Assembly: GCA_049517335.1 (NCBI GenBank)
Contig: JBEKSD010000002.1
Coordinates: 78,523-142,522 of the forward strand
Reading direction: 5' to 3'
Source: Candidatus Omnitrophota bacterium
GTDB lineage: Bacteria > Omnitrophota > Gorgyraeia > Gygaellales > Profunditerraquicolaceae
DNA length: 64,000 bases
The position numbers and the translations under genes were made by a program. Of the stretch, positions 8,694-35,025 are shown one piece after another; the first letter of the stretch is position 1, and each line of letters begins with the position of its first letter. The notes beneath the pieces are model-generated. The model was not told the origin of the DNA, searched no databases, and worked only from the letters and a program-made list of their open reading frames with translations.

Positions 8694-9524
8694 ATGCCAA
8701 AGATAACTGTTCAGGATATTCTGGCCTTAAAAGGTAAACGTAAAATAACCATGCTTACCGCTTATGATTATCCGCTTGCGGCATTAGTGGATAAAACAGG
8801 CATTGATATGATTTTAGTCGGAGACTCACTGGCTAATGTTGTTTTAGGGCTTGATTCAACGACAAAAGTGGGTATGCCTGAAATGCTGCATCATGCAAAA
8901 GCGGTAACCCGTGCGGTAAAACACGCGCTGGTAGCCGGGGATATGCCTTATGATTCTTATCAGGTCAACCCGGAAGAATGCGTAAAGAACGCAAGAAGGT
9001 TTATCTCTGAGGCAAACTGTGACTGTGTAAAGCTTGAGTGGTTTGACAAATGCTTGGAGGTAACCGAAAAAATCATCAAGGCGGGAATTCCGGTAATCGG
9101 GCATATTGGTTTAACTCCGCAAACCGCAGAAAAAATAGGCGGTTTTAAAGTTCAGGGAAAGGATGCAGAAGCCGCTAAACGCTTAATTGAGCAAGCACTT
9201 GAGCTGGAAAAACTAGGGGCCTTTGCGCTTGTCCTTGAATGCGTACCGGATAAGATTGCCGAAATAATCACAAAGAAGCTTAAAATCCCGAGCATCGGAA
9301 TAGGCGCTGGCTCCCATTGCGACGGGCAGGTTTTGGTGATGCACGATATGCTCGGCCTTTTTGAACGCTATACCCCGAAGTTTGTAAAAAAATATATCAA
9401 TCTTTCTCCCATGATCTTGAAAGCCATTGAAGAATTTAAAACAGAAGTTGTTGAAGGGAAATTTCCTGGTCCAGAGCATACCTTCAGTATCAAAGAAGAA
9501 GAAATAAAAAAACTTAAAGCATGA
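8694..9524 (+). CDS. panB: 3-methyl-2-oxobutanoate hydroxymethyltransferase
   Basis: 276 aa; conserved KITMLTAYDYP and VGDSLANVVLG motifs. Confidence 0.85.
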   Translation: MPKITVQDILALKGKRKITMLTAYDYPLAALVDKTGIDMILVGDSLANVVLGLDSTTKVGMPEMLHHAKAVTRAVKHALVAGDMPYDSYQVNPEECVKNARRFISEANCDCVKLEWFDKCLEVTEKIIKAGIPVIGHIGLTPQTAEKIGGFKVQGKDAEAAKRLIEQALELEKLGAFALVLECVPDKIAEIITKKLKIPSIGIGAGSHCDGQVLVMHDMLGLFERYTPKFVKKYINLSPMILKAIEEFKTEVVEGKFPGPEHTFSIKEEEIKKLKA

Positions 9525-10264
9525 AAATTAAAGATAGAATAATCAAATATTTAAGCGCAGCAATATTCCTTATTGCCGGCCTTAGCTTTATAGCCAAATT
9601 CGGAGGGCCTCAGATATTAAAGTATTACGTCCAAACAGGCATAGGCGACTGCGAAAGAATCCCGATTTTTTGCATGTCTCCGTACGAAACGATAGACGTT
9701 TCAAAACCGAATTCCGCATACATGGCCGAACTTGTTCCTTATAAAGCTTACAAAATCTCGGCATATGTACCGAAAGGTTTTAACGTCGTGCAGGAACTGA
9801 TTATGAAAACAAGCTTTAAAAAACATAAGCGCATGTTTAAGGGAGATATTATTTATATGCTTTGTCAGGATAAAGATTTTTTTACCCGACTATACCCCCA
9901 ATTGAAAAAAGAGGGCGTAAACGACAACTATGAGTTCATCCGCCGCGTTATGTACGCGAAAGAGGATGAAATCAATAATATAACCGATACCTTTTTCGTA
10001 ATTATGAAAGGAATATTCATTCCGGATATCGGAAACCAGTTAAACGCAAAAATGATACGGGTAAATCTAGGCGGATTCAAAGGCTTCATAAATTACAATA
10101 TGGAAAAAACGGGGAATTATTTTGACTGTAACGTTGTTGACGGAGAAGGGAAATTTTTTAAGGTATATATTAAAGATAAAAGCAGGGTTCTTAATTTGGA
10201 GAAGGTTTTTACCATTCTCTCAACCGTAAAATGCATTGACGCGGGAATTCTCTTGCCCCGTTAG
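9521..10264 (+). CDS. hypothetical protein with N-terminal transmembrane anchor
   Basis: 247 aa ORF; 4-nt overlap with panB; no recognisable motif. Confidence 0.4.
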   Translation: MKIKDRIIKYLSAAIFLIAGLSFIAKFGGPQILKYYVQTGIGDCERIPIFCMSPYETIDVSKPNSAYMAELVPYKAYKISAYVPKGFNVVQELIMKTSFKKHKRMFKGDIIYMLCQDKDFFTRLYPQLKKEGVNDNYEFIRRVMYAKEDEINNITDTFFVIMKGIFIPDIGNQLNAKMIRVNLGGFKGFINYNMEKTGNYFDCNVVDGEGKFFKVYIKDKSRVLNLEKVFTILSTVKCIDAGILLPR

Positions 10265-10308
10265 AAATATTATGGTAATATATTTTTCTATTTGAGGTTA
10301 TTAAATTT

Positions 10309-11622
10309 ATGCCTGAGAACTTAATGGAAAAAATAGTTTCTTTCTCTAAGCGCCGCGGGTTTATTTTCCAGTCATCGGAAATATACGGCGGCTTAAGCAA
10401 TACCTGGGATTACGGACCGTACGGTATTGAGCTTAAGAACAATTTAAAACGCGCCTGGTGGAAAACAAATGTTTACGAGCAGGACGATATTTACGGTATG
10501 GACGCAGCCATCCTTATGCACCCCAAAGTCTGGGAGGCAAGCGGGCATGTTAATAATTTCTTTGATATATATTTAGATTGCCTAAACTGCAAAAAAAGAA
10601 TAAAAGTTGACGACCCAACTTTCAAGAAAGTAACTAATACCTGTCCTTATTGTGGCGAGTCTGGACTCACTGATCCAAGAGAATTTAATTTAATGTTTAA
10701 AACTCATCAGGGTCCAATTGAAGAAGCAGCCAATCTGATCTATCTTCGTCCTGAAACCGCGCAGGGGATGTTTGTTAATTTCTTAAATATCCTTGATTCA
10801 AAACACTCTAAGTTGCCTTTTGGGCTGGCTCAAATAGGAAAAGCATTCCGCAACGAAATCACTCCGGGAAATTTTACCTTCCGTACCCGGGAATTTGAAC
10901 AGATGGAGATTGAGTATTTTGTCAACCCTGAAGAAGCAGATAAAAAATACGAAGAGTGGATTAATGCCCGGTTCAATTGGTATTTAGGGTTGGGGCTAAA
11001 AAGAGATAACATACGTTTAAGGCCGCACGGAAAAGAAGAACTTGCGCATTATGCCTTGGCGTGTACCGACATAGAGTATAATTTCCCGTTTGGCTGGTCT
11101 GAGCTTGAAGGGATTGCCAACCGCACGGATTTTGACCTAAAGCAGCATGCTAAAGTGAGTGGTAAAGATCTAAGGTATTATGACGACGCAACGAAAGAAA
11201 GATTCTACCCTTATATAATTGAGCCTTCCGGCGGAGTGGACAGGAGCATTTTAGCGTTCATGGTCGATGCTTACCATGAGGAGAAAGTAAAGGGAGAAAC
11301 GCGCGTAGTGATGAAATTACACAAAGAGCTGGCTCCGATAAAAGTTGCAATTTTACCGCTTTTACGCAACCGGCCTGAAATCGTAGAGCTGGCAAAAAAA
11401 ATCAGCGCGGAATTAAAAAAGAAACTTGCCACTGTTTACGACGATACCGGCTCTATCGGCAAGCTTTACCGTCGGCAGGATGAAGTCGGCACGCTTTATT
11501 GTATTACGGTTGATGTACAGTCTTTGGAGGATAAACAAATTACGGTTCGCGATCGCGACACGATGTTGCAAGAACGAGTTTCGGTCGATAAAATAAAAGA
11601 ATATCTTGCAGATAAGCTATAA
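10309..11622 (+). CDS. glyQS: Glycine--tRNA ligase (alpha2 homodimeric type)
   Basis: 437 aa; SKRRGFIFQSSEIYGG N-terminus and class II synthetase motifs. Confidence 0.85.
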   Translation: MPENLMEKIVSFSKRRGFIFQSSEIYGGLSNTWDYGPYGIELKNNLKRAWWKTNVYEQDDIYGMDAAILMHPKVWEASGHVNNFFDIYLDCLNCKKRIKVDDPTFKKVTNTCPYCGESGLTDPREFNLMFKTHQGPIEEAANLIYLRPETAQGMFVNFLNILDSKHSKLPFGLAQIGKAFRNEITPGNFTFRTREFEQMEIEYFVNPEEADKKYEEWINARFNWYLGLGLKRDNIRLRPHGKEELAHYALACTDIEYNFPFGWSELEGIANRTDFDLKQHAKVSGKDLRYYDDATKERFYPYIIEPSGGVDRSILAFMVDAYHEEKVKGETRVVMKLHKELAPIKVAILPLLRNRPEIVELAKKISAELKKKLATVYDDTGSIGKLYRRQDEVGTLYCITVDVQSLEDKQITVRDRDTMLQERVSVDKIKEYLADKL

Positions 11623-11642
11623 AAAGGAGGGTTTTAAAAGTA

Positions 11643-14381
11643 ATGGTAAAGAAATACGTTTACAGTTTTGGCGGAGGTAAAGCAGACGGAAATGAAAGCA
11701 TGAAAAATCTTCTGGGTGGCAAAGGCGCCAACCTGGCTGAAATGGCAGGGCATAAAGATTTGAAACTTCCTGTTCCTCCGGGATTTACGCTTACTACCGA
11801 GGTTTGCACATATTATTACCAGCACCACCGGACTTATCCTTCTACCTTAAAAACAGAAGTAAATAAGGCGTTAGCGCATGTTGAGAAATTAATGCTCAGG
11901 AAATTCGGCGACGTGGAAAGCCCGTTATTGGTTTCCGTGCGCTCGGGCGCAAGAAAGTCCATGCCCGGAATGATGGAAACGGTTTTAAACGTCGGCCTGA
12001 CTGAAAGGACTATCCCCGGACTGATCAAGCAAAGCGGAGGCAATGCGCGTTTTGTTTATGATGCCTACCGCCGACTGATTATGATGTATTCCGACGTTGT
12101 TATGGAGAAAGCGGCAGGTATCGAGCCAAAAGACGAACAGGGAATACGCAAGCAGCTAGAAAGAATTATGTTGCAGATAAAGAATGAAAAAGGCTATAAG
12201 AGCGATACCGACTTAACTGCCGAAGATTTAAAGAAGCTCTGCAACCTTTTTAAGGCGAGAATCAAAGAAGTATTAAAGAAGGAATTTCCGGATGAACCTA
12301 TGCAGCAATTATGGGGCGGTATAGGCGCCGTATTTGCTTCATGGAATGGCAAGCGCGCGATTTCCTACCGCCGCATTGAGAGGATTCCCGATGAATGGGG
12401 AACCGCGGTAAACGTGCAGACCATGGTATTCGGCAATATGGGCAATGATTCCGCAACCGGCGTTGCCTTCAGCCGTAACCCCGGCACAGGAGAAAACTAT
12501 TTCTACGGCGAATATTTACTTAACGCCCAGGGCGAAGACGTTGTTGCGGGCATCCGTACGCCAGCCCCCATAAATGAATTATCAAAATCAGAACACAATA
12601 AAGAACTGGTCACACTGGAAAAATCCATGCCTAAACTCTATAAAGAACTGGTTAACTACCGTGACCGTCTGGAAAAACATTACCGCGATATGCAAGATAT
12701 TGAATTCACCATAGAAAAAGGCCGCCTGTTTATGCTTCAGTGCCGCGTGGGAAAACGCAACGGCCCGGCAGCAGTATGCATGGCTATGGAGATGATAAAG
12801 GAAAAACTGATTAAACGGGAAGAAGCAGTTCTAAGAGTTTCCCCTGAGCAGCTTGACGAGCTGCTTCATCCGATTATTAATCCTAAAGCAGAATTAACCC
12901 ATAAGCCGCTGGCTAAAGGTTTACCTGCAGGGCCGGGAGGAGCAACAGGGCAGATTGTTTTTTCCGCAAATGATGCAGTAGAATGGACAAAGCAGGGCAA
13001 AAAAGTAATACTGGTGCGCGAAGAAACCAACCCCGAAGATGTTGAGGGTATGCGCGCAGCTGAAGCAATTCTGACTGCCCGGGGAGGAATGACTTCACAC
13101 GCCGCCTTAGTTGCCCGTGGCTGGGGAAAATGCTGCGTTGTCGGATGCTCTGCGCTACATGTTGAATTTGATAAGAAAGAAATATCTATCGGAGGTAAAA
13201 CCTTAAAAGAAGGCGACTGGATTACCTTAAACGGAAGCAAAGGGAATGTCTATGAAGACAAGCTCCCGATGATGGACGCCACAAAGGAAAATAAAGTCCT
13301 TAACGCTTTCTTAAAGATTTGCGCTGACATTAAGAAACTGGGGATTCGCACTAACGCCGACACTCCAGAAGATGCGGCTAAAGCAAGGGAATTCGGCGCA
13401 GAAGGTATCGGCTTGTTCAGGACCGAGCACATGTTTTACGGCAAAGGCTCTGATGAAGCCTTGTTCCTGCTGCGTAAGATGATTATTTCAAAGACCTTGG
13501 AAGAAAGGACAAAAGCCCTTGATGAGCTGGCTCCTTATGTCAAAAAAGACATAAAAGGAACCCTTGAAGCTATGGATGGATTCCCGGTAGTTATCCGTTT
13601 ACTGGACCCGCCCCTTCATGAATTCGTACCGCGCGATTCCGAAAAGCTTGAGCACCTTGCAAAAGAGCTTAACATCAGTATGGAAGAATTGTCCGAGCGC
13701 GCAGAAAATTTACACGAATCTAACCCGATGATGGGACACCGCGGGGTACGTTTGGGAATAACTTATCCTGAAGTAAGCAGTATGCAGGTCCGCGCGATAT
13801 TTGAAGCTACGGCAGAGTTGATTAAAGAAGGCAGGAAACCTTATCCGGAGATTATGATCCCCGTTGTCTGTGACGTAAAAGAACTGACTAACCAGCTTGA
13901 GTTATGCCGCAAGGTTTATGCCGAAGTGCTGAAAAAATATGGGTTAAAAAATATCAAGCATATGTTCGGGACGATGATTGAAATTCCGCGTGCGGCATTG
14001 CTTGCGGATAAGCTTGCGGAAGTTGCTCAGTTCTTCTCATTCGGGACTAACGACTTAACCCAAATGGGATTTGGCTTTTCGCGCGATGATATTGGGGGCT
14101 TTGTTCCGGATTATCTGAAATTGGGTATTTTACCGGAAGACCCGTTCCAAAGCATTGACCAGGAAGGGATAGGCCAGCTTATTAAAATAGGCATTGAACG
14201 CGGCCGCAAGACAAATAAAAAACTTGAAGTGGGCATTTGCGGCGAACACGGAGGAGAGCCGAAATCAGTTGAATTCTGCCATAAAGTCGGCATGAATTAT
14301 GTCAGCTGCTCGCCGTTCCGTGTTCCGATTGCGAAATTAGCTGCAGCTCAGGCGGTATTAAAAGAAAAAAGAAATAACTAA
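11643..14381 (+). CDS. ppdK: Pyruvate, phosphate dikinase
   Basis: 912 aa; PEP-utilising enzyme motifs (GGMTSHAALVARGWGKCCVVG catalytic His region), C-terminal TIM-barrel motifs. Confidence 0.9.
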   Translation: MVKKYVYSFGGGKADGNESMKNLLGGKGANLAEMAGHKDLKLPVPPGFTLTTEVCTYYYQHHRTYPSTLKTEVNKALAHVEKLMLRKFGDVESPLLVSVRSGARKSMPGMMETVLNVGLTERTIPGLIKQSGGNARFVYDAYRRLIMMYSDVVMEKAAGIEPKDEQGIRKQLERIMLQIKNEKGYKSDTDLTAEDLKKLCNLFKARIKEVLKKEFPDEPMQQLWGGIGAVFASWNGKRAISYRRIERIPDEWGTAVNVQTMVFGNMGNDSATGVAFSRNPGTGENYFYGEYLLNAQGEDVVAGIRTPAPINELSKSEHNKELVTLEKSMPKLYKELVNYRDRLEKHYRDMQDIEFTIEKGRLFMLQCRVGKRNGPAAVCMAMEMIKEKLIKREEAVLRVSPEQLDELLHPIINPKAELTHKPLAKGLPAGPGGATGQIVFSANDAVEWTKQGKKVILVREETNPEDVEGMRAAEAILTARGGMTSHAALVARGWGKCCVVGCSALHVEFDKKEISIGGKTLKEGDWITLNGSKGNVYEDKLPMMDATKENKVLNAFLKICADIKKLGIRTNADTPEDAAKAREFGAEGIGLFRTEHMFYGKGSDEALFLLRKMIISKTLEERTKALDELAPYVKKDIKGTLEAMDGFPVVIRLLDPPLHEFVPRDSEKLEHLAKELNISMEELSERAENLHESNPMMGHRGVRLGITYPEVSSMQVRAIFEATAELIKEGRKPYPEIMIPVVCDVKELTNQLELCRKVYAEVLKKYGLKNIKHMFGTMIEIPRAALLADKLAEVAQFFSFGTNDLTQMGFGFSRDDIGGFVPDYLKLGILPEDPFQSIDQEGIGQLIKIGIERGRKTNKKLEVGICGEHGGEPKSVEFCHKVGMNYVSCSPFRVPIAKLAAAQAVLKEKRNN

Positions 14382-28713: not shown

Positions 28714-29184
28714 CTAAAATCCTTTTCTATTTACACTTGTTACAGTTATATCGCCACTCACACGCATCCCTCTTGATTCTTTTCCTGTAGCATTAGAACT
28801 GTCCGCTTGCTTCTCCTTAATAACAATCACAAAAGACTCTTCATTTATTGGAGGCTTACCTTTTTCCCACGGACGCACATATTTAAAAAAGATAGTCGTC
28901 TTCCCTGCCTTAAGCGCTTCGATAGTCCACAGTTGTTTTCCACCTGAACCGATAAGTTTAGGGTTGTTTCCTGAATATGAAGACCTTATCAATTCCAACA
29001 TATCTTTATCTAATGACCTTGCAAATTGCCATCTGTAACCGGTAGTCGCATTTGATTCCAGCGTAATCGTGAAACTCTGGCCAGCATAGGTTTCAATAAC
29101 TTTAACTTGTTTTTGCTCTTGCGCAAAACAAATCGAAGAAAAAAATAACAAAATAAATACGGATTGAATAAGCTTTTTCATCAT
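28714..29184 (-). CDS. Secreted chagasin-family (I42) cysteine-protease inhibitor
   Basis: 156 aa; signal peptide; NATTGYRWQ motif matches the chagasin NPTTG(Y/F)xW loop. Confidence 0.65.
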   Translation of the reverse strand: MMKKLIQSVFILLFFSSICFAQEQKQVKVIETYAGQSFTITLESNATTGYRWQFARSLDKDMLELIRSSYSGNNPKLIGSGGKQLWTIEALKAGKTTIFFKYVRPWEKGKPPINEESFVIVIKEKQADSSNATGKESRGMRVSGDITVTSVNRKGF

Positions 29185-29190
29185 TTATGG

Positions 29191-29217
29191 GGTCAGGCCC
29201 GAAGTTCGGGTCTGACC
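29191..29217. repeat. GC-rich hairpin GGTCAGGCCCGAAGTTCGGGTCTGACC directly upstream of the chagasin-like start; outer arms related to the palindromic element family
   Basis: 11-13 bp stem; no U-tract on either strand. Confidence 0.35.
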
Positions 29218-29333
29218 ACTGTTTTGGGTAAATTACCTATTTCCTAATTATATCACTTCCATTTCAAAATAGTAAATGATTTAGAAAAAAGGGTGGCTGA
29301 ACGATTACTAAACACATCTATTTTCAAATTCAC

Positions 29334-29484
29334 GAGGTGACTCCCTTGAGGACGGGCAGTAATATTGCACAAGGGGACGCCCTCTCTGTAAACAGCTATT
29401 GGCAAATTTGAGAGGTATTCCCGTTAAGGACCCCAGAAAGGAGTCACCATAGAAAGACTCTCTGTAAACAGGTAGGGCAAAATT
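29334..29484. repeat. Two tandem diverged copies (A 29334-29409, B 29410-29484) of an intergenic repeat family (GAGGTGACTCCC...CTCTCTGTAAACAG.TA..GGCAAA)
   Basis: A and B share their 3-prime halves; A carries GGTGACTCC and B its reverse complement GGAGTCACC; a third copy lies at 35079-35131. Confidence 0.5.
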
Positions 29485-29501
29485 AGAGCGGACAAACTTT
29501 C

Positions 29502-30167
29502 TTAAATACATAAAGATGAATCTTCACGAGAAACAATCCTACCATCCTTAAGATAAACCACCCTCGCTGCCTGCGAGCCGAGCTTAGGGTTATGCGTAGT
29601 CAATATAACTGTAAGGTTTTCTTTCTTATTTAAATCAGCCAGTAGGCCAAAAATATCCTCACCGCTTTTTGTATCCAGGTTTCCCGTTGGCTCATCGGCA
29701 AAAAGGATCTTTGGCGATGTAACCAAAGCACGGGCAATAGCCACCCTCTGTTTCTCTCCTCCGGAAAGCTCTTTTGGCAAATGATTTATACGTTTTCCTA
29801 GTCCGACCCGTTCCAATAATTCTCTCGCCTGCCTAGCCTGCTGCGACATGCGCGCAAAAAGCAAAGGCAGTTGCACGTTTTCAATCGCTGTAAGCGTAGG
29901 GATAAGCAAAAAATCCTGAAACACAAATCCTAAATACTTACGGCGCATTGAAACAAGCACATTCTCCTTTGCCTTCGAAACATCTTTACCAAGTATACTT
30001 AAACTCCCACTTGTAATTGTAGTTAAGCAACCAAGGCTATCAAGCAACGTAGTTTTACCTGATCCGGATGGCCCCATAATAGCGATAAAATCTCCTGCCG
30101 CTACCTCAAGATTAACATCACGCACAGCATAAATCTCTTCGGCCAAGAGTTTATAAACTTTAGTCAA
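29502..30167 (-). CDS. ABC transporter ATP-binding protein (MacB/LolD-type)
   Basis: 221 aa; Walker A GPSGSGKTT, signature LSGGEKQRVAIARAL, Walker B ILFADEPT. Confidence 0.85.
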   Translation of the reverse strand: MTKVYKLLAEEIYAVRDVNLEVAAGDFIAIMGPSGSGKTTLLDSLGCLTTITSGSLSILGKDVSKAKENVLVSMRRKYLGFVFQDFLLIPTLTAIENVQLPLLFARMSQQARQARELLERVGLGKRINHLPKELSGGEKQRVAIARALVTSPKILFADEPTGNLDTKSGEDIFGLLADLNKKENLTVILTTHNPKLGSQAARVVYLKDGRIVSREDSSLCI

Positions 30168-30199
30168 TTTATTTGCTTAAATTATATATTCTTTCATAA

Positions 30200-31387
30200 C
30201 TATTCTCCCGCGCGAATCGCTTCTACTGGTTTCATTAGCGATGCCCGCAATGCCGGATATGCCCCGGCCATCAAACCCATAGCCACCGTGGCAAAAAAGG
30301 CTATCAAAAGAAACTCTGGTTTAATCAATACGAGTTTCCCTGACGGCGCATAAGGGAGGGTGTGACGGATGATTTTTTCTACAAGCGCGCTTCCTATAGA
30401 GGCAAGCATCACTCCAAATAACCCGCCGAATACGCAGATAAGCACTGTCTCTGCCCAGATTACCTTAAAGATATCTAGAGCCGAAGCTCCTAAAGCCTTC
30501 ATTACTCCTATTTCACGTGTACGTTCAAAAACCGACATCAGTATTGTGTTGGTTACGCCGATAACCGCAATAAAAATAGCGATTAATGCTATGGAATTAG
30601 CCATTGCCCGCGCCGAAGCCACGAGGTTGAGAATCGTTCCGCGTACCTGGGCAAGGCTGACCACCTGAATCCCCGGTTCGTTGTAAAGCGATTCTTCGAA
30701 CTCACCTATCTGCTGAATATTCTTAAGCTTTATACCAATACCAGTGAGTTTACCTGGTAAATTAAATATACGCTGTGCAGTAGCAAGCGGGATAAAAATA
30801 ACTCCGTCATCTTGTGTTCCGGTACGCTCAAATATCCCTTTCACGGTAAGCACCTTATTAATTCCGGAAACAAAAATCTTATCACCTATTAATCTCTGCT
30901 CTAATTCCGCGGCTTCATAGCCCATGATTGTCTCATCTGCATCGGAACCGGAAAACCATCCGCCGGATTTAAACTTCGACCAAGGTTTTAACTCAATGTA
31001 AGATTTATCTATGCCCATGTAAAGAGCAAATGATCCACGGTTCTGCGGACCGCCTTCCTGATTATAAACACTGGAAACCAATTGGGGCGTGATCTTGTCT
31101 ATGTGCTTGTCTTGTATTATACGCTTATAAACCGCATCATCCATATAGCGTAGCCCGCCGCCACCTTGAAGCATCAGCGTTGCCGCCTCATAGGGACAAC
31201 CCTTAGCCGTAACTAAAAGATGGTAGCCCAATTTATCAATATCCTTATTTAACCCGTTTTGATAACCTGCATCAAAACCAAAAAGACTAACTAATACCGC
31301 AACTGCCACTGCCACGCCTCCTATGGTAAGAGCAGTGCGAATTTTCTTACGTTTCAGGTTCTTATACGCTAAAGAGATGAATTTCAT
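30200..31387 (-). CDS. ABC transporter permease, FtsX/MacB family
   Basis: 395 aa; N-terminal TM helix, large periplasmic domain, C-terminal FtsX 3-TM bundle. Confidence 0.8.
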   Translation of the reverse strand: MKFISLAYKNLKRKKIRTALTIGGVAVAVAVLVSLFGFDAGYQNGLNKDIDKLGYHLLVTAKGCPYEAATLMLQGGGGLRYMDDAVYKRIIQDKHIDKITPQLVSSVYNQEGGPQNRGSFALYMGIDKSYIELKPWSKFKSGGWFSGSDADETIMGYEAAELEQRLIGDKIFVSGINKVLTVKGIFERTGTQDDGVIFIPLATAQRIFNLPGKLTGIGIKLKNIQQIGEFEESLYNEPGIQVVSLAQVRGTILNLVASARAMANSIALIAIFIAVIGVTNTILMSVFERTREIGVMKALGASALDIFKVIWAETVLICVFGGLFGVMLASIGSALVEKIIRHTLPYAPSGKLVLIKPEFLLIAFFATVAMGLMAGAYPALRASLMKPVEAIRAGE

Positions 31388-31758
31388 TTAAGCTCAACTC
31401 CTTCTCCAATAACGGAAATTTGATTATCTTCTTTTTTTACCTTGCCCTCTGCCACTACCTTGCTACCGACTGCCTGCGGTATGGCTATTTCAGAAGGATG
31501 CAAGTCAACTAATATAACTCCCGTAGCATCCTTAAGCATGAACCATCCTCCGGCAGGGCATTCCTGGACAATTTTTCCCTCTAGCCGTACGGACTTCCCG
31601 GAGAACTGATCTGATTGCTTTAAAATTTCTGTCACGGTAGTAACTTTTGCTTGACTAAGCTGGCTGCCGTAAATTCCTGGCTTCTTAGCGCAGCCGTAGA
31701 GAACAAACCATATGGAAATACCCGAAATCAACGTAAAAACTAATAATATTTTCTTCAT
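31384..31758 (-). CDS. Lipoprotein with BOF/YgiW-like OB-fold domain
   Basis: 124 aa; lipobox LYGC; pattern TVTEILKQSDQFSGKSVRLEGKIV...FMLKDATGVILVDL...GSKVVAEGKV typical of YgiW/BOF OB folds. Confidence 0.45.
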   Translation of the reverse strand: MKKILLVFTLISGISIWFVLYGCAKKPGIYGSQLSQAKVTTVTEILKQSDQFSGKSVRLEGKIVQECPAGGWFMLKDATGVILVDLHPSEIAIPQAVGSKVVAEGKVKKEDNQISVIGEGVELK

Positions 31759-31770
31759 CTAAACTCTCCT

Positions 31771-32361
31771 TTATTTCTGCGAAAGTAGCAATAGATCCAA
31801 AAGAATCATATTTTTTCTCAATCCCCGTAACGTCGCCCGGAAATCCTCAGGGCTGTTTGAGCTTGGGTCTTTTACAGAAACATTCCCCTTGATAAAATCG
31901 TCCAGCGTCAGGCCTTTGAACTGTGAAGTAAATTTAGTATTCATAAACTTGCCTGCTTCTGGAGAAGACATCTTTTGGTAATAGAAATCGACTATCTTAC
32001 CGTTTAAATCAGTGGCCATAATAAGCTGCATCCCCCCGTATTTGCCTTTTTGGTTTACCCCATGGACATAGCCGATTGGATCTTTACCCTTAAGCACCGT
32101 GTAAAAAACATAAGGAACATCCAAATTCTCATATACCGGCTCAAGTTTGTCATTCAGTTTATCTTCCACTTCTTTCTTTAATGTTTCTCCACCTTTTTCC
32201 TTAATAGTAACAAAGGTGGTTTTATAGCCGGTGGACTCTGGAAAGATCCTCGCTATGTCTCGGTCAGGGTCATTAAGGCTACAGCCCACCGCAGCCCAGG
32301 CAGAGCTGACGAATAAAAACAGCACGGCAAGAACCATTAGAGTCTTAAATATTTTTTTCAT
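31771..32361 (-). CDS. secreted periplasmic protein (weak FMN_bind-like pattern)
   Basis: Start set at the internal MKKIFKTL signal peptide; no firm motif. Confidence 0.4.
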   Translation of the reverse strand: MKKIFKTLMVLAVLFLFVSSAWAAVGCSLNDPDRDIARIFPESTGYKTTFVTIKEKGGETLKKEVEDKLNDKLEPVYENLDVPYVFYTVLKGKDPIGYVHGVNQKGKYGGMQLIMATDLNGKIVDFYYQKMSSPEAGKFMNTKFTSQFKGLTLDDFIKGNVSVKDPSSNSPEDFRATLRGLRKNMILLDLLLLSQK

Positions 32362-32362
32362 C

Positions 32363-33376
32363 TTAGTCCCCCAAGAAATAGAATTGCACCACAAATCTAT
32401 CTTCCGGCTTTGTATTCATCATACCAAAATCATGCAAGTATGCCGCGCTCAGCTTTGTCGACTGGCTTAGCCTGTATGTTGCACCAAGAGTAAGTGTAGG
32501 CTCATCACTAGATTTTATATGCATATCATTAATCCATGATTTATACTGCAACTCAAACTCTATGTTCTGATGCGCAGGAAGCGTGTAAACTATCTCAGTA
32601 AGATAGCCCAATACCTCATTTTTATCATCGCGGCCATAAGCACATTCTCCCTTAAAAAGAAACGGTCCGTAAAGATACTGTCCGTCTAAACCTACTCTAT
32701 TCTTATTCATCGCATCGGGTGATAAAAGCTTATCTTCAGGAAAAGTACGCATGCCTTCGCTCTCTAGGGTGCGGCCAGATAATAATGAGAGCCCAGCTTG
32801 TAAATTTCTACCTTGGGGTGTTCCTATTCTTAACGTTGCCAGATAGCTGTCGTCCTGGCGGCGTATGCTCATGCCTGATCCTGTTTGCAGACTGGCTTCG
32901 TAATCAAACTTTGGAAATGATCCGCGCATCTGCACACCCCAGTCTTTGTTAAATCCAATATCCTGGTCAGCTAAAGTCTGCAGTAACGTGCTGTGCGTAT
33001 CTACCACCGGCTCAAGGCCAAACGAGGGGGTAAAATGCCCCCCTCTTATTTTAAGATACTGCGAGATTTTATACTCGAGCCAGGCATTATGAATCTCTGC
33101 TCCCCCTGCCTGGTGGGAATTCTCCCTGCTATCATAGGCAGCGCGCATCTGCAGGTCAGCGGTAAGAAAATCTCCGTAATCTCCGGAAAACTTACGGTAT
33201 AATTCAAAACCTGCGGAGCTGTTCATTGTCCCGTTTTTGTCAATCCAACCATCCCGACTGGAATAACCTCCTATAAGGTTTAGTTCCTTATAGAAAAACC
33301 CTTCAGAATCTGCAAAAGCCCAAGATACAGGAAATAAAGCTATTAAGGCTAAGACTATTAATGATTTATAGGGCAT
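32363..33376 (-). CDS. putative outer-membrane beta-barrel protein
   Basis: 337 aa; signal peptide ...SWAFA; alternating aromatic beta-strand pattern; C-terminal YFLGD. Confidence 0.45.
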   Translation of the reverse strand: MPYKSLIVLALIALFPVSWAFADSEGFFYKELNLIGGYSSRDGWIDKNGTMNSSAGFELYRKFSGDYGDFLTADLQMRAAYDSRENSHQAGGAEIHNAWLEYKISQYLKIRGGHFTPSFGLEPVVDTHSTLLQTLADQDIGFNKDWGVQMRGSFPKFDYEASLQTGSGMSIRRQDDSYLATLRIGTPQGRNLQAGLSLLSGRTLESEGMRTFPEDKLLSPDAMNKNRVGLDGQYLYGPFLFKGECAYGRDDKNEVLGYLTEIVYTLPAHQNIEFELQYKSWINDMHIKSSDEPTLTLGATYRLSQSTKLSAAYLHDFGMMNTKPEDRFVVQFYFLGD

Positions 33377-33384
33377 AAATCTTT

Positions 33385-33666
33385 TTACAATTTCCTGAAC
33401 TGTCGGATAAGCTGCAGTATCTCCTCAATCTTTTTTGCGCGCTCAACTCCTGACTTGCCCCGTATAGCTTCGCTGACGCAACCGTTAAAGTGTCTCTCCA
33501 AAACTTTATCTTCTACAGAAACAAGTGCTTTCATTACCGCATGCGTCTGATTGAGGATATCCACGCAATACTTGCGCTCTTCAATCATTCTCTGTATTCC
33601 CCGCACCTGGCCCTCTATCCTCTTTAATGCCACGATGCTCTCTGTGTGATTCGGATATTCCTTCAT
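33385..33666 (-). CDS. CsoR/RcnR/FrmR-family metal-sensing transcriptional repressor (DUF156)
   Basis: About 93 aa from the internal start MKEYPNH; RIEGQVRGIQRMIEE..YCVDIL.Q..AV..AL signature; C-terminal HFNGC. Confidence 0.7.
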   Translation of the reverse strand: MKEYPNHTESIVALKRIEGQVRGIQRMIEERKYCVDILNQTHAVMKALVSVEDKVLERHFNGCVSEAIRGKSGVERAKKIEEILQLIRQFRKL

Positions 33667-33694: not shown

Positions 33695-33724
33695 AGCATA
33701 CAATAGGGAGGTATAGTATGTCAA
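33695..33724 (-). promoter_or_regulatory. candidate sigma-70 promoter of the csoR-like gene with an embedded ATAC-N-GGGAGG-TAT candidate operator
   Basis: Minus strand reads TTGACAtactatacctccctattgTATGCT, 18-nt spacer; the spacer holds a G/C tract flanked by ATAC/GTAT, reminiscent of CsoR/RcnR sites. Confidence 0.4.
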
Positions 33725-33785: not shown

Positions 33786-34967
33786 CTAATCAGAATATGC
33801 TTTTTGTTTACTGATAGCGCTAATAAATATTGGTAAAGCGGCAATCTGTAAGACTACTGAAAAGATAATCAGGGCAGGCAGTGATTTAACATATAGAATT
33901 CCCATAATAGCGCTCCCTAAAAACCAGGCAATTCCAAATCCGGTATCAAATACACCGAATGCTGTGCTTCTCTTATCTCTGGAAATCACATTAGCGAGCG
34001 TTGCTTTAAGAAGAGATTCTTGCGCACCCAAGCCAATACCCCAGAGTATCATGCCGATAATAATCAAAAAGAACTTGCCCAAGAAGACAAACGGAGCAAA
34101 GAATGCCCCGAGGAAAAAGGCAACTAGCATCACCTTTGGGCCTATTTTGTCTAATAAGCGGCCGAAAATAAGAGAACTGATTCCCGCCATGGCCATAGCT
34201 ACCGCATAAAGAATCGGAATCCAATGCATGGGAACATTTTTTGTTTTATCAAAATGAAATGCGATTAAAGCAAAATCTGCGAATCCCGCTCCAATCAAGG
34301 CTCCACCTGACAGATAAAGCCAGTAAACCTTTGTTAATCCTTTGGTTTCTAAGCCTACAGCTTCTTTTTTATCTAAATCCTGAGGCTTAGGAAAAAACAA
34401 TCTTGCAGCTACAAGCATTACTATACACAATAGTGCTGATATCAAAAGAACGCCATATCCGTATTTATAACTATTTTTTATAAATAACACCCAAGCCACA
34501 ATTAAAGGACCTATTGTTGCACCAAACTGATCCATGAACTCATTAAGCCCGAATACCCAGCCGATACCCATTTCTTTGCCAGCGAAGGAAAGCATGGTCT
34601 CTACCGCTGGTTTCCTGATAGCTCTTCCTGTGCGCTCTAGGATTATCAACACGCAAGCCACGGGCCAATTACCTGCTAAGGCCAAGGCAGGCACGGCAAG
34701 CATATTAATTGCATAACCAACAAAGGCAAAAATCCAATATTTGTGAGTTTTATCGGCAAAAAATCCTGCTATGGAGCGTAGCGCGTAACCGAGTAATTCT
34801 CCAAGACCAGCTACAAATCCCACTACAACGGCACTAGCGCCTAAACTGGATAAAAATGCTCCATTAATACTTCTTCCTCCTTCATAGGTAAAGTCTGCAA
34901 ATAAATTTACAATGCCTATAATCAGCACAAATTCAAATGCAAGTTGAGCAATATTCTTTTTATTCAT
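33786..34967 (-). CDS. MFS transporter
   Basis: About 393 aa from MNKKNIAQ; 12 predicted TM helices. The track start at 34997 falls inside duplicated element D2, where copy D1 reads ACG instead of ATG. Confidence 0.75.
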   Translation of the reverse strand: MNKKNIAQLAFEFVLIIGIVNLFADFTYEGGRSINGAFLSSLGASAVVVGFVAGLGELLGYALRSIAGFFADKTHKYWIFAFVGYAINMLAVPALALAGNWPVACVLIILERTGRAIRKPAVETMLSFAGKEMGIGWVFGLNEFMDQFGATIGPLIVAWVLFIKNSYKYGYGVLLISALLCIVMLVAARLFFPKPQDLDKKEAVGLETKGLTKVYWLYLSGGALIGAGFADFALIAFHFDKTKNVPMHWIPILYAVAMAMAGISSLIFGRLLDKIGPKVMLVAFFLGAFFAPFVFLGKFFLIIIGMILWGIGLGAQESLLKATLANVISRDKRSTAFGVFDTGFGIAWFLGSAIMGILYVKSLPALIIFSVVLQIAALPIFISAISKQKAYSD

Positions 34968-34984
34968 AATTTTTATTATTAAAT

Positions 34985-35025
34985 CCTGTCCATGCAAATA
35001 TTAGATATAATTATATCTTGTAGTA
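34985..35025. repeat. Copy D2 of the 41-nt duplicated segment, immediately upstream of the MFS gene
   Basis: See D1; contains TATAAT-like and TTGCAT-like hexamers on the minus strand. Confidence 0.5.

Follow-up and report, generated by a model that had tools for sequence, protein, structure and literature searches.

Gene organization of the cassette

The window analysed here is a 64 000-nucleotide stretch of contig JBEKSD010000002.1 from a Candidatus Omnitrophota bacterium, and this study concerns a cassette of six genes on its minus strand (positions 29502–33666), which encode, in order of transcription, a CsoR-family regulator, an outer-membrane porin, a small secreted protein here called P4, an OB-fold lipoprotein, an FtsX/MacB-type permease and an ATPase of the ATP-binding cassette (ABC) type. 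As shown by the listing of open reading frames (ORFs) and by hidden Markov model (HMM) scans, the genes are co-directional and are packed or overlapping; a preliminary description of this DNA had listed six minus-strand ORFs in this order, and all of them are present at these coordinates. The csoR gene (33385–33666, 93 residues) starts at ATG 33666, preceded by the ribosome-binding site AGGAGGG, and is followed by the genes for the porin (32363–33376, 337 residues), P4 (31771–32361, 196 residues, secreted or N-terminally anchored), the lipoprotein (31384–31758, 124 residues), the permease (30200–31387, 395 residues) and the ATPase (29502–30197). P4 and the lipoprotein correspond to ABSE81_01690 and ABSE81_01685 in NCBI, each with 100% identity. 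From csoR to the ABC gene the intergenic gaps are 8, 1, 12, −4 and 2 nucleotides (nt), the negative value being an ATGA overlap of the stop codon of the lipoprotein gene with the start codon of the FtsX gene, and owing to these short or negative gaps the group looks like a single operon.

Upstream of csoR lies a promoter at 33695–33724 (minus strand), with a −35 hexamer TTGACA (33724–33719), an 18-nt spacer and a −10 hexamer TATGCT (33700–33695); with 10 of 12 positions matching, it comes closest to a sigma-70-like promoter of all sites on this strand between 28600 and 34000. The same TTGACA-to-TAT(A/G)CT architecture is found in orthologous loci. The reading that we favour, and to which we give an even chance, is that the cassette is a metal-induced, ATP-driven module which clears the periplasm of a thiophilic metal, Cu(I) being the likeliest, by means of a cysteine relay and a dedicated porin.

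Conservation and divergent copies

Eighty loci from at least 12 phyla were fetched, and flanking genes were counted only where the contig was long enough. The cassette occurs in Omnitrophota, Planctomycetota, Acidobacteriota, Desulfobacterota, Nitrospirota, Cloacimonadota, Lentisphaerota, Myxococcia and several candidate phyla, and the order porin–P4–(OB)–FtsX–ABC is almost invariant over the fetched loci. Relatives of P4 are accompanied by a porin gene directly upstream in 67 of 72 cases, by an FtsX gene in 72 of 73 and by an ABC gene in 65 of 66; an OB lipoprotein gene is found with 58 of 73, and csoR is found upstream with 32 of 68. This arrangement is far more frequent than chance would give, and co-occurrence profiling over the 80 loci shows the genes to occur together widely. 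The conserved core is porin–P4–FtsX–ABC, with the OB lipoprotein and CsoR as frequent but optional members; in loci of the Desulfobacterota type the OB gene is missing, and a gene for a YtkA-like secreted protein is often found upstream instead. The P4 family itself comprises 447 clusters at 50% identity, drawn from 1.84 billion representatives, of which 186 match with E ≤ 1e-10, and a pattern scan using one genome per species found P4 relatives in 393 genomes. The listed P4 homologues are all without a Pfam domain and without a functional name.

A search of PLSDB by tblastn gave one plasmid with the cassette, NZ_CP019036.1 (L082) of Massilia putida 6NM-7 from wolfram (tungsten)-mine tailings. 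Its cassette (9374–13974) consists of seven overlapping genes, three of them annotated 'hypothetical', which encode a cysteine-rich ArsR/SmtB regulator, porin-like, P4-like and OB-like proteins, an FtsX permease carrying G-C-P-M-E-A-A, an ABC ATPase and, at the end of the operon, a protein like the N-terminal part of DsbD (DsbD-N-like). The homology of the porin counterpart (BLASTP E 7e-7) and of the OB counterpart is confirmed. The cassette is flanked by transposase and recombinase genes, and the plasmid is mobilizable. The regulator can be exchanged for an ArsR/SmtB protein, as in this plasmid. At a second, still more divergent locus (L081, 6001–9839) a P4–DUF3179 fusion gene is convergent to a trio of OB lipoprotein, FtsX and ABC genes, and the trio keeps the GCPYEAAT and C...G-x-W motifs. 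The three cysteines of P4, the OB lipoprotein and FtsX are kept in both of these highly divergent versions. Distant P4 relatives (P0339, P0346, P0347, P0361 and P0375) have a C-terminal DUF3179 fused to them together with an extra C-x4-C pair, DUF3179 being listed among the prokaryotic selenoprotein families.

The FtsX permease and the ABC ATPase

The permease matches MacB_PCD (PF12704, 67.9 bits against a cutoff of 27, E 1.9e-18) and FtsX (PF02687, 65.3 bits against a cutoff of 25.5, E 6.7e-18), and its best relatives of solved structure are MacB (E 8e-17 to 5e-16) and then LolE/LolC. A large periplasmic domain lies between transmembrane helices 1 and 2 (TM1 and TM2), and by its sequence the permease is of the MacB type (type VII). 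Just past TM1 is the subfamily-specific stretch T-A-K-G-C-P-Y-E-A-A-T, the cysteine of which, Cys64, is 98% conserved among 52 orthologues; R-T-G-T-Q-D-D-G at residues 188–195 is likewise conserved in this set.

The ATPase matches ABC_tran with 116 bits and, under the respective equivalog cutoffs, LolD (E 1.9e-66) and the nucleotide-binding domain of MacB (E 5e-63), with DevA also near. Its conserved start codon is the ATG at 30197 (MKEYII...), followed by an in-frame TAA at codon 7 (30179–30177), a codon that is AAA or CAC (Lys/His) in five close relatives; the ORF reopens at TTG 30167, a possible restart from which 221 residues are encoded. The TAA is either a true early nonsense mutation or an assembly error. 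At five other loci (L018, L020, L054, L055 and L076) a second ABC ATPase gene stands in tandem, its product 43–49% identical to the first, which suggests that the ATPase may be heterodimeric in some lineages.

The nearest NCBIfam families (LolD/LolCE, MacB and DevA, all below cutoff) would suit a conventional exporter of the MacB/Lol kind, moving a peptide, a lipid or a lipoprotein and standing beside a metal regulator by chance, as would the absence of csoR from about half of the loci. We consider this explanation highly improbable: the order porin–P4–FtsX–ABC and the subfamily-specific cysteines are kept across many phyla, two unrelated families of metalloregulator have been recruited, and in Massilia, a betaproteobacterium that presumably has a Lol system of its own, the cassette is carried on a plasmid.

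P4, the OB-fold lipoprotein and the porin

P4 has no Pfam match, including to FMN_bind (PF04205), and a search of the PDB sequences with its profile gave nothing useful. The AlphaFold model (pLDDT 91.7) places it in the RnfG/NqrC-like fold, with a sequence identity to RnfG and NqrC of 11–16%. Its hallmark is A-[VI]-G-C-x-L-N-D-P-D-R-D, directly after the signal or anchor helix, in which Cys27 is present in 73 of 73 orthologues; His100 is also invariant. A lipobox role for Cys27 was ruled out, since distant members have N, M, T, I or L before the cysteine, and Cys27 is therefore predicted to be a free thiol near the membrane surface; in distant family members an AxA signal-peptidase I site precedes the cysteine. 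The region which by eye matches the SGAT flavinylation site reads D-F-x-A-T-L-R-G; the position of the aligned Thr is occupied by Ala, Ile or Cys in 14 of the 73 orthologues, most Desulfobacterota-type sequences among them. A canonical flavinylated FMN-binding protein was thus ruled out as an identity for P4, there being no SGAT motif, a variable Thr and a silent PF04205; because FMN_bind is silent and the candidate Thr is not conserved, P4 is not a canonical ApbE substrate.

The lipoprotein, with its lipobox cysteine at Cys23, falls just below the cutoffs of BOF (PF04076, 21.8 bits against 25.8, E 2e-4) and NF033674 (32.8 bits against 35, E 6e-8). Its AlphaFold model (pLDDT 89.8) finds Escherichia coli YgiW (1nnx) as the top Foldseek match, with E 6.9e-6 and a target-normalised TM-score of 0.73, and at the level of the model this confirms a five-stranded OB barrel resembling YgiW. 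The motif E-C-P-x-G-G-W contains Cys67, found in 51 of 51 orthologues, and Trp72, conserved in 98%; Cys67 aligns with a cysteine of the Massilia and L081 counterparts (hhalign probability 96% and 95%, respectively). The outer-membrane barrel, as judged by sequence, is a member of Porin_4 (32.5 bits against a cutoff of 27, residues 20–314), with a Porin_O_P match (E 5.7e-4) and an N-terminal signal peptide ending in AFA. His114, His128, Trp146 and Met169 are invariant among its orthologues.

The Pfam scan of the six cassette genes, including the porin gene, gave no OEP match, and no HlyD match was found among nine scanned genes of the window. Likewise, no HlyD, OEP, ApbE or electron-transfer partner is among the 25 commonest families in the neighbourhood (177 flanking ORFs from the 80 loci, Pfam). 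The preliminary description had proposed a MacB/FtsX-type exporter without an HlyD-type membrane-fusion protein, accompanied by a BOF-like lipoprotein, a small secreted periplasmic protein and a dedicated β-barrel; each of these assignments holds, that of the barrel as a prediction from sequence and that of the small protein with the refinement that P4 has the RnfG/NqrC fold without the flavinylation motif. According to the HMM annotation, the accessory proteins are not remnants of LolA or MacA.

The main rival of metal clearance is a periplasmic system for thiol redox or repair, in which FtsX–ABC, together with partners bearing one cysteine each, would pass on or supply reducing power in the envelope or resolve thiols damaged by metal. 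P4 has the same fold as RnfG and NqrC, which are redox subunits. Scs/DsbD systems are known to protect against copper, the Massilia operon closes with the DsbD-N-like protein, distant P4 relatives are fused to the selenoprotein-listed DUF3179, and genes for AhpC/Redoxin proteins adjoin a few loci. There is also a precedent in gene context: the FtsX-type transporter FetBCD of P19/FetMP iron-uptake systems pairs with thioredoxins in Gram-negative bacteria or with an FMN-binding protein in Gram-positive bacteria (PMC10783030, PMC5449479, PMC8238504), and the fetMP-fetABCDEF (P19) and Bifidobacterium sifABCDE clusters resemble the cassette by tying an FtsX ABC transporter to an FMN-binding-fold protein or thioredoxins and to YHS (PMC10783030, PMC5449479, PMC8238504). 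However, those clusters have their own FTR1/P19 iron permease, are induced by iron limitation and contain two FtsX subunits, whereas the cassette, controlled by CsoR or ArsR, is without P19/FTR1 and joins a single FtsX to a porin and an OB lipoprotein. P4, moreover, has neither the SGAT motif nor an FMN_bind match, and its candidate Thr is Ala in Desulfobacterota-type orthologues. No core component contains a CxxC motif, ApbE and a membrane electron-transfer partner are absent from the summaries of the commonest neighbour families, and it is hard to see what a redox relay would need a dedicated porin for. On balance we regard a thiol-redox function as unlikely, although it is the alternative to be taken most seriously.

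The CsoR regulator and its operator

The regulator matches PF02583 with 90 bits (E 1.2e-25). Its best NCBIfam match is the copper-sensing RicR (73 bits against a cutoff of 175), and no equivalog cutoff was reached. Tyr33, Cys34, His59, Cys63 and His7 are each at least 95% conserved among 34 orthologues, and the protein carries the x-C-H-C metal-ligand fingerprint of the Cu(I)-sensing branch. A Tyr adjacent to the Cys ligand is a feature of Cu(I)-sensing CsoR proteins, and in RcnR and InrS a His is located about 32 residues before the Cys, while by inspection the spacing from His7 to Cys34 is 27 residues.

The predicted operator of the window (33698–33719, minus strand) is ATACTATACCTCCCTATTGTAT, with the core TAC-N9-GTA at 33713–33699, and it fills the spacer of the promoter and overlaps the two hexamers. 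It is collinear with the box ATACCATACCCC(C/T)CTATGGTAT of the close relatives L001, L005 and L026, and differs from the L026 box by three mismatches while keeping TAC-N9-GTA. Boxes of the type ATACCCC-N-GGGGTAT, or of the Bacillus subtilis-like variant ATACCATACCCCCCTATGGTAT, lie between the −35 and −10 hexamers in nearly all of the 33 csoR-bearing loci. The type-2 CsoR consensus has been given as ATATACCCCTNAGGGGTATAT, with a TAC-X9-GTA dyad that is required for binding (PMC3902906), and the operators of the csoR-bearing loci match this consensus and dyad, the window copy being degenerate. Outside this site, no canonical G-tract box turned up when the window was scanned with a loose pattern, and a search upstream of the porin at loci without csoR found no CsoR box. 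The regulator is thus assigned by sequence to CsoR, with its operator predicted inside the promoter, and the CsoR/RcnR-family repressor that had been proposed is supported by PF02583, the Cys-His-Cys fingerprint and this operator.

The regulator also bears on the possibility that the same machine handles a substrate other than copper, namely nickel or cobalt where it is linked to CsoR, or arsenic, cadmium, mercury or lead where it is linked to ArsR; the cassette would then be a general module for soft metals, with its specificity set by the paired regulator. The conserved Tyr33–Cys34 pair, as in Cu(I)-sensing CsoR proteins, and the His7–Cys34 distance of 27 residues, in comparison with the roughly 32 of RcnR/InrS, both argue for copper, as do the YHS, NosL and YtkA neighbours described below. 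The operators are near-identical to verified type-2 sites of copper-sensing CsoR and do not resemble the type-1 sites TACT-G6-N-AGTA of RcnR (PMC3902906). In favour of another metal are His7, at least 95% conserved, which extends the ligand set to H-C-H-C; the nickel sensors within the CsoR/RcnR family, which include NreA (PMC12724321) and RcnR (PMC3902906); the cysteine-rich ArsR/SmtB regulator of the Massilia copy; and the invariant histidines that the porin and P4 retain. Taken together, a non-copper specificity appears rather improbable to us.

Directly upstream of the csoR promoter, and on its strand, lies a gene for an MFS transporter (33786–34997, 403 residues) that is not conserved beside the cassette at other loci. 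Nickel-sensing regulators of the CsoR family are known to control MFS exporters, and by this analogy the MFS gene may be functionally tied to the cassette in this genome.

Flanking genes

The families that recur around the cassette, all at low frequency, are YHS, YtkA-like, NosL, Rrf2 and genes of sulfur and iron metabolism. Secreted YHS-domain proteins are found at six loci (L002, L009, L018, L021, L036 and L041; Pfam E 5.8e-11), and YtkA-like proteins at nine loci (within L067–L080), only where the OB lipoprotein is missing. At one locus the ABC gene is followed by two NosL-family ORFs side by side (L080, 8835–9879). YHS, YtkA-like and NosL proteins point to copper-associated families flanking the cassette in some lineages. 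The YtkA-like proteins carry a conserved M-P-S-M-x-G-A-H motif.

The NosL-family ORFs bring in the converse direction of transport, in which metal would enter through the porin, be carried by the OB lipoprotein and P4 as chaperones and be inserted into periplasmic or membrane metalloproteins by the ABC motor. NosDFY–NosL, an ABC mechanotransducer with a lipoprotein copper chaperone, performs a similar delivery for nitrous-oxide reductase, and NosR carries an FMN-binding domain; the cassette may parallel this logic, and a porin is more natural as an entry than as an exit. However, derepression of CsoR at metal excess is the wrong logic for acquisition, the commonest neighbour families offer no candidate for a conserved client metalloenzyme, and a mobile plasmid copy in an isolate from mine tailings suggests resistance. 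We therefore hold metal delivery or uptake to be quite improbable.

Genes for CysK, HcyBio, NifS-like, Rrf2 and FeoAB proteins surround the cassette at nine loci (L007, L015, L017, L019, L026, L027, L036, L053 and L059) from several Omnitrophota-like and Lentisphaerota genomes. These cysteine/homocysteine and FeoAB surroundings could reflect mere synteny, or they could hint at a link with sulfur or iron.

Downstream of the cassette in the window, the repeats and the chagasin-type inhibitor gene that the preliminary description had placed beside the system are indeed present, and they are not parts of the cassette. The interval from the stop codon of the ABC gene to the chagasin gene contains three direct repeats of about 34 nt (29304–29491); the repeat unit is CCNCTC-AATTTGCC-N-CTGTTTACAGAGAG (minus strand), with 65–79% identity and a period of 76–78 nt, a spacing like that of a mini-array. 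As a component of the system the repeats were rejected, the motif occurring in none of 82 fetched loci, with no Rfam match and a folding z-score of −0.66. The chagasin-family gene (28714–29184; PF09394, E 2e-26) was rejected in the same way, a homologue being near the cassette in one of 80 loci. A promoter-like site of its own precedes it, TTTACT-18-TATAAT with an upstream TG (29276–29247), and a perfect hairpin with a 12-bp stem (29191–29217), which could occlude the ribosome-binding region of the gene, ends 6 nt before its start codon.

A proposed mechanism of metal clearance

Focusing on the clearance of a thiophilic metal, the parts described above may work together as follows. In the absence of the metal, CsoR would sit on the promoter operator and repress csoR and the five downstream genes, and when the metal, most probably Cu(I), accumulates in the cytoplasm, CsoR would leave the DNA. 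The MacB-type (type VII) motor, consisting of an FtsX permease dimer and the ATPase, would then be made, and it would act on the periplasmic side by mechanotransmission, like MacB and LolCDE, with two dedicated periplasmic proteins and a dedicated outer-membrane porin as its partners. The OB lipoprotein would scavenge periplasmic metal through Cys67/Trp72 in a CusF-like manner and hand it to a membrane-proximal site formed by Cys64 of FtsX and Cys27 of P4; ATP-driven motion of the periplasmic domain of FtsX would then push the metal out via the porin, lined with His, Met and Trp residues. In this scheme P4 may be the adaptor, in place of the HlyD-type fusion protein of MacAB–TolC. Metal binding, the identity of the metal, the protein–protein contacts and the direction of transport are what we infer from the following features.

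Metal clearance is suggested because the regulator is a CsoR with the Y-C...H...C pattern and type-2 boxes lie in the promoters; because the Massilia plasmid copy from mine tailings is under an ArsR/SmtB protein, which is a second and independent link to metals; and because the copper-associated extras YHS, YtkA-like and NosL recur. It is further suggested by the single conserved cysteine in each periplasm-facing part (P4, the OB lipoprotein and FtsX) together with the H/W/M residues of the porin, by a motor of the MacB type without a membrane-fusion protein or TolC among the commonest neighbour families, and by co-occurrence with P4 across phyla.

Several observations weigh against this reading. 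Neither csoR nor a CsoR box is present at roughly half of the loci, so the link to copper is not universal. The H-C-H-C pattern created by the conserved His7 is shared by the nickel sensor InrS, and Massilia relies on a regulator of another family than CsoR, so that different lineages may handle different metals. Owing to the conserved His7 and the ArsR regulator of the Massilia copy, the identity of the metal is uncertain. The single cysteines, the P4–DUF3179 fusions and the DsbD-N-like neighbour fit thiol redox equally well, and a general porin offers no periplasm-spanning duct, which weighs on active expulsion. The homologues of the cassette members are all annotated 'hypothetical'. Finally, the window copy is perhaps impaired, because its operator is degenerate and its ATPase gene has an early stop codon; the copy may be impaired in fact, or the assembly may be in error.

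A more far-reaching version of metal clearance can be offered with reserve, as we think it somewhat improbable in full: the cassette would represent a new and widespread class of ATP-driven envelope machine for metal expulsion, in which a MacB-type motor is joined to an ordinary porin by a flavin-less RnfG/NqrC-fold protein and an OB chaperone in place of an HlyD adaptor and a TolC duct, with Cu(I) or a different soft metal passing from Cys67 of the OB lipoprotein to Cys27 of P4 and Cys64 of FtsX and then to His/Met/Trp residues of the porin. In this version the machine would be a main periplasmic copper defence of anaerobic diderms, for which oxygen-dependent multicopper oxidases are unusable.

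Comparison with known systems

As in MacAB–TolC, LolCDE and FtsEX, the cassette has a four-TM FtsX permease with a MacB-type periplasmic core between TM1 and TM2 and a separate LolD/MacB-like ATPase, and work on the periplasmic side is expected. Unlike MacAB–TolC, it is without an HlyD fusion protein and a TolC duct, none having been found, and has instead the RnfG-fold protein, the OB lipoprotein and Porin_4; the GCP(Y/M)EAA stretch past TM1 and the regulation by a metal sensor also set it apart. In comparison with CusCFBA, the logic of metal-induced removal of periplasmic Cu(I) with a small β-barrel chaperone would be the same, and the Trp beside the ligands is comparable to Cys67...Trp72. 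However, no component is homologous, a MacB-type motor would draw on ATP where Cus has an RND proton antiporter, thiolates would take the place of the Met/His ligands, and a porin stands where CusC is TolC-like. P4 differs from RnfG/NqrC in having no [S/T]GA[S/T] motif and no Rnf/Nqr subunits nearby, and in its N-terminal cysteine motif, which is unique to P4. With CsoR–copZA the cassette shares a CsoR that regulates its own gene and has the C-H-C site, as well as a pseudopalindromic type-2 operator with G-tracts that overlaps the promoter, whereas the cargo consists of envelope ABC–porin genes and not of a P-type ATPase or CopZ. Literature searches (CsoR with FtsX, CsoR with MacB, DUF4920, and Omnitrophota with copper) found no description of the cassette.

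Conclusions

In conclusion, the six-gene cassette of this Omnitrophota bacterium is an envelope ABC machine of the MacB type, with metal regulation and an undescribed set of accessory proteins, and it is probably an undescribed system for the clearance of soft metals. MacB-type machines are understood mainly through MacAB–TolC, LolCDE and FtsEX, to which the cassette would add a fourth architecture, made up of a porin, an RnfG-fold adaptor and an OB-fold chaperone; three 'hypothetical' protein families gain names and a testable context, and the plasmid copy in the cultured Massilia putida makes the hypothesis directly testable. The cassette may also throw light on the still unexplained FtsX transporter that belongs to the P19/Fet iron systems. 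If the metal relay is true, this would be the first MacB-type system devoted to metal homeostasis and a new, flavin-free use of the RnfG/NqrC fold, and it would help to explain how periplasmic Cu(I) is handled in anaerobic diderms, including the uncultured Omnitrophota.

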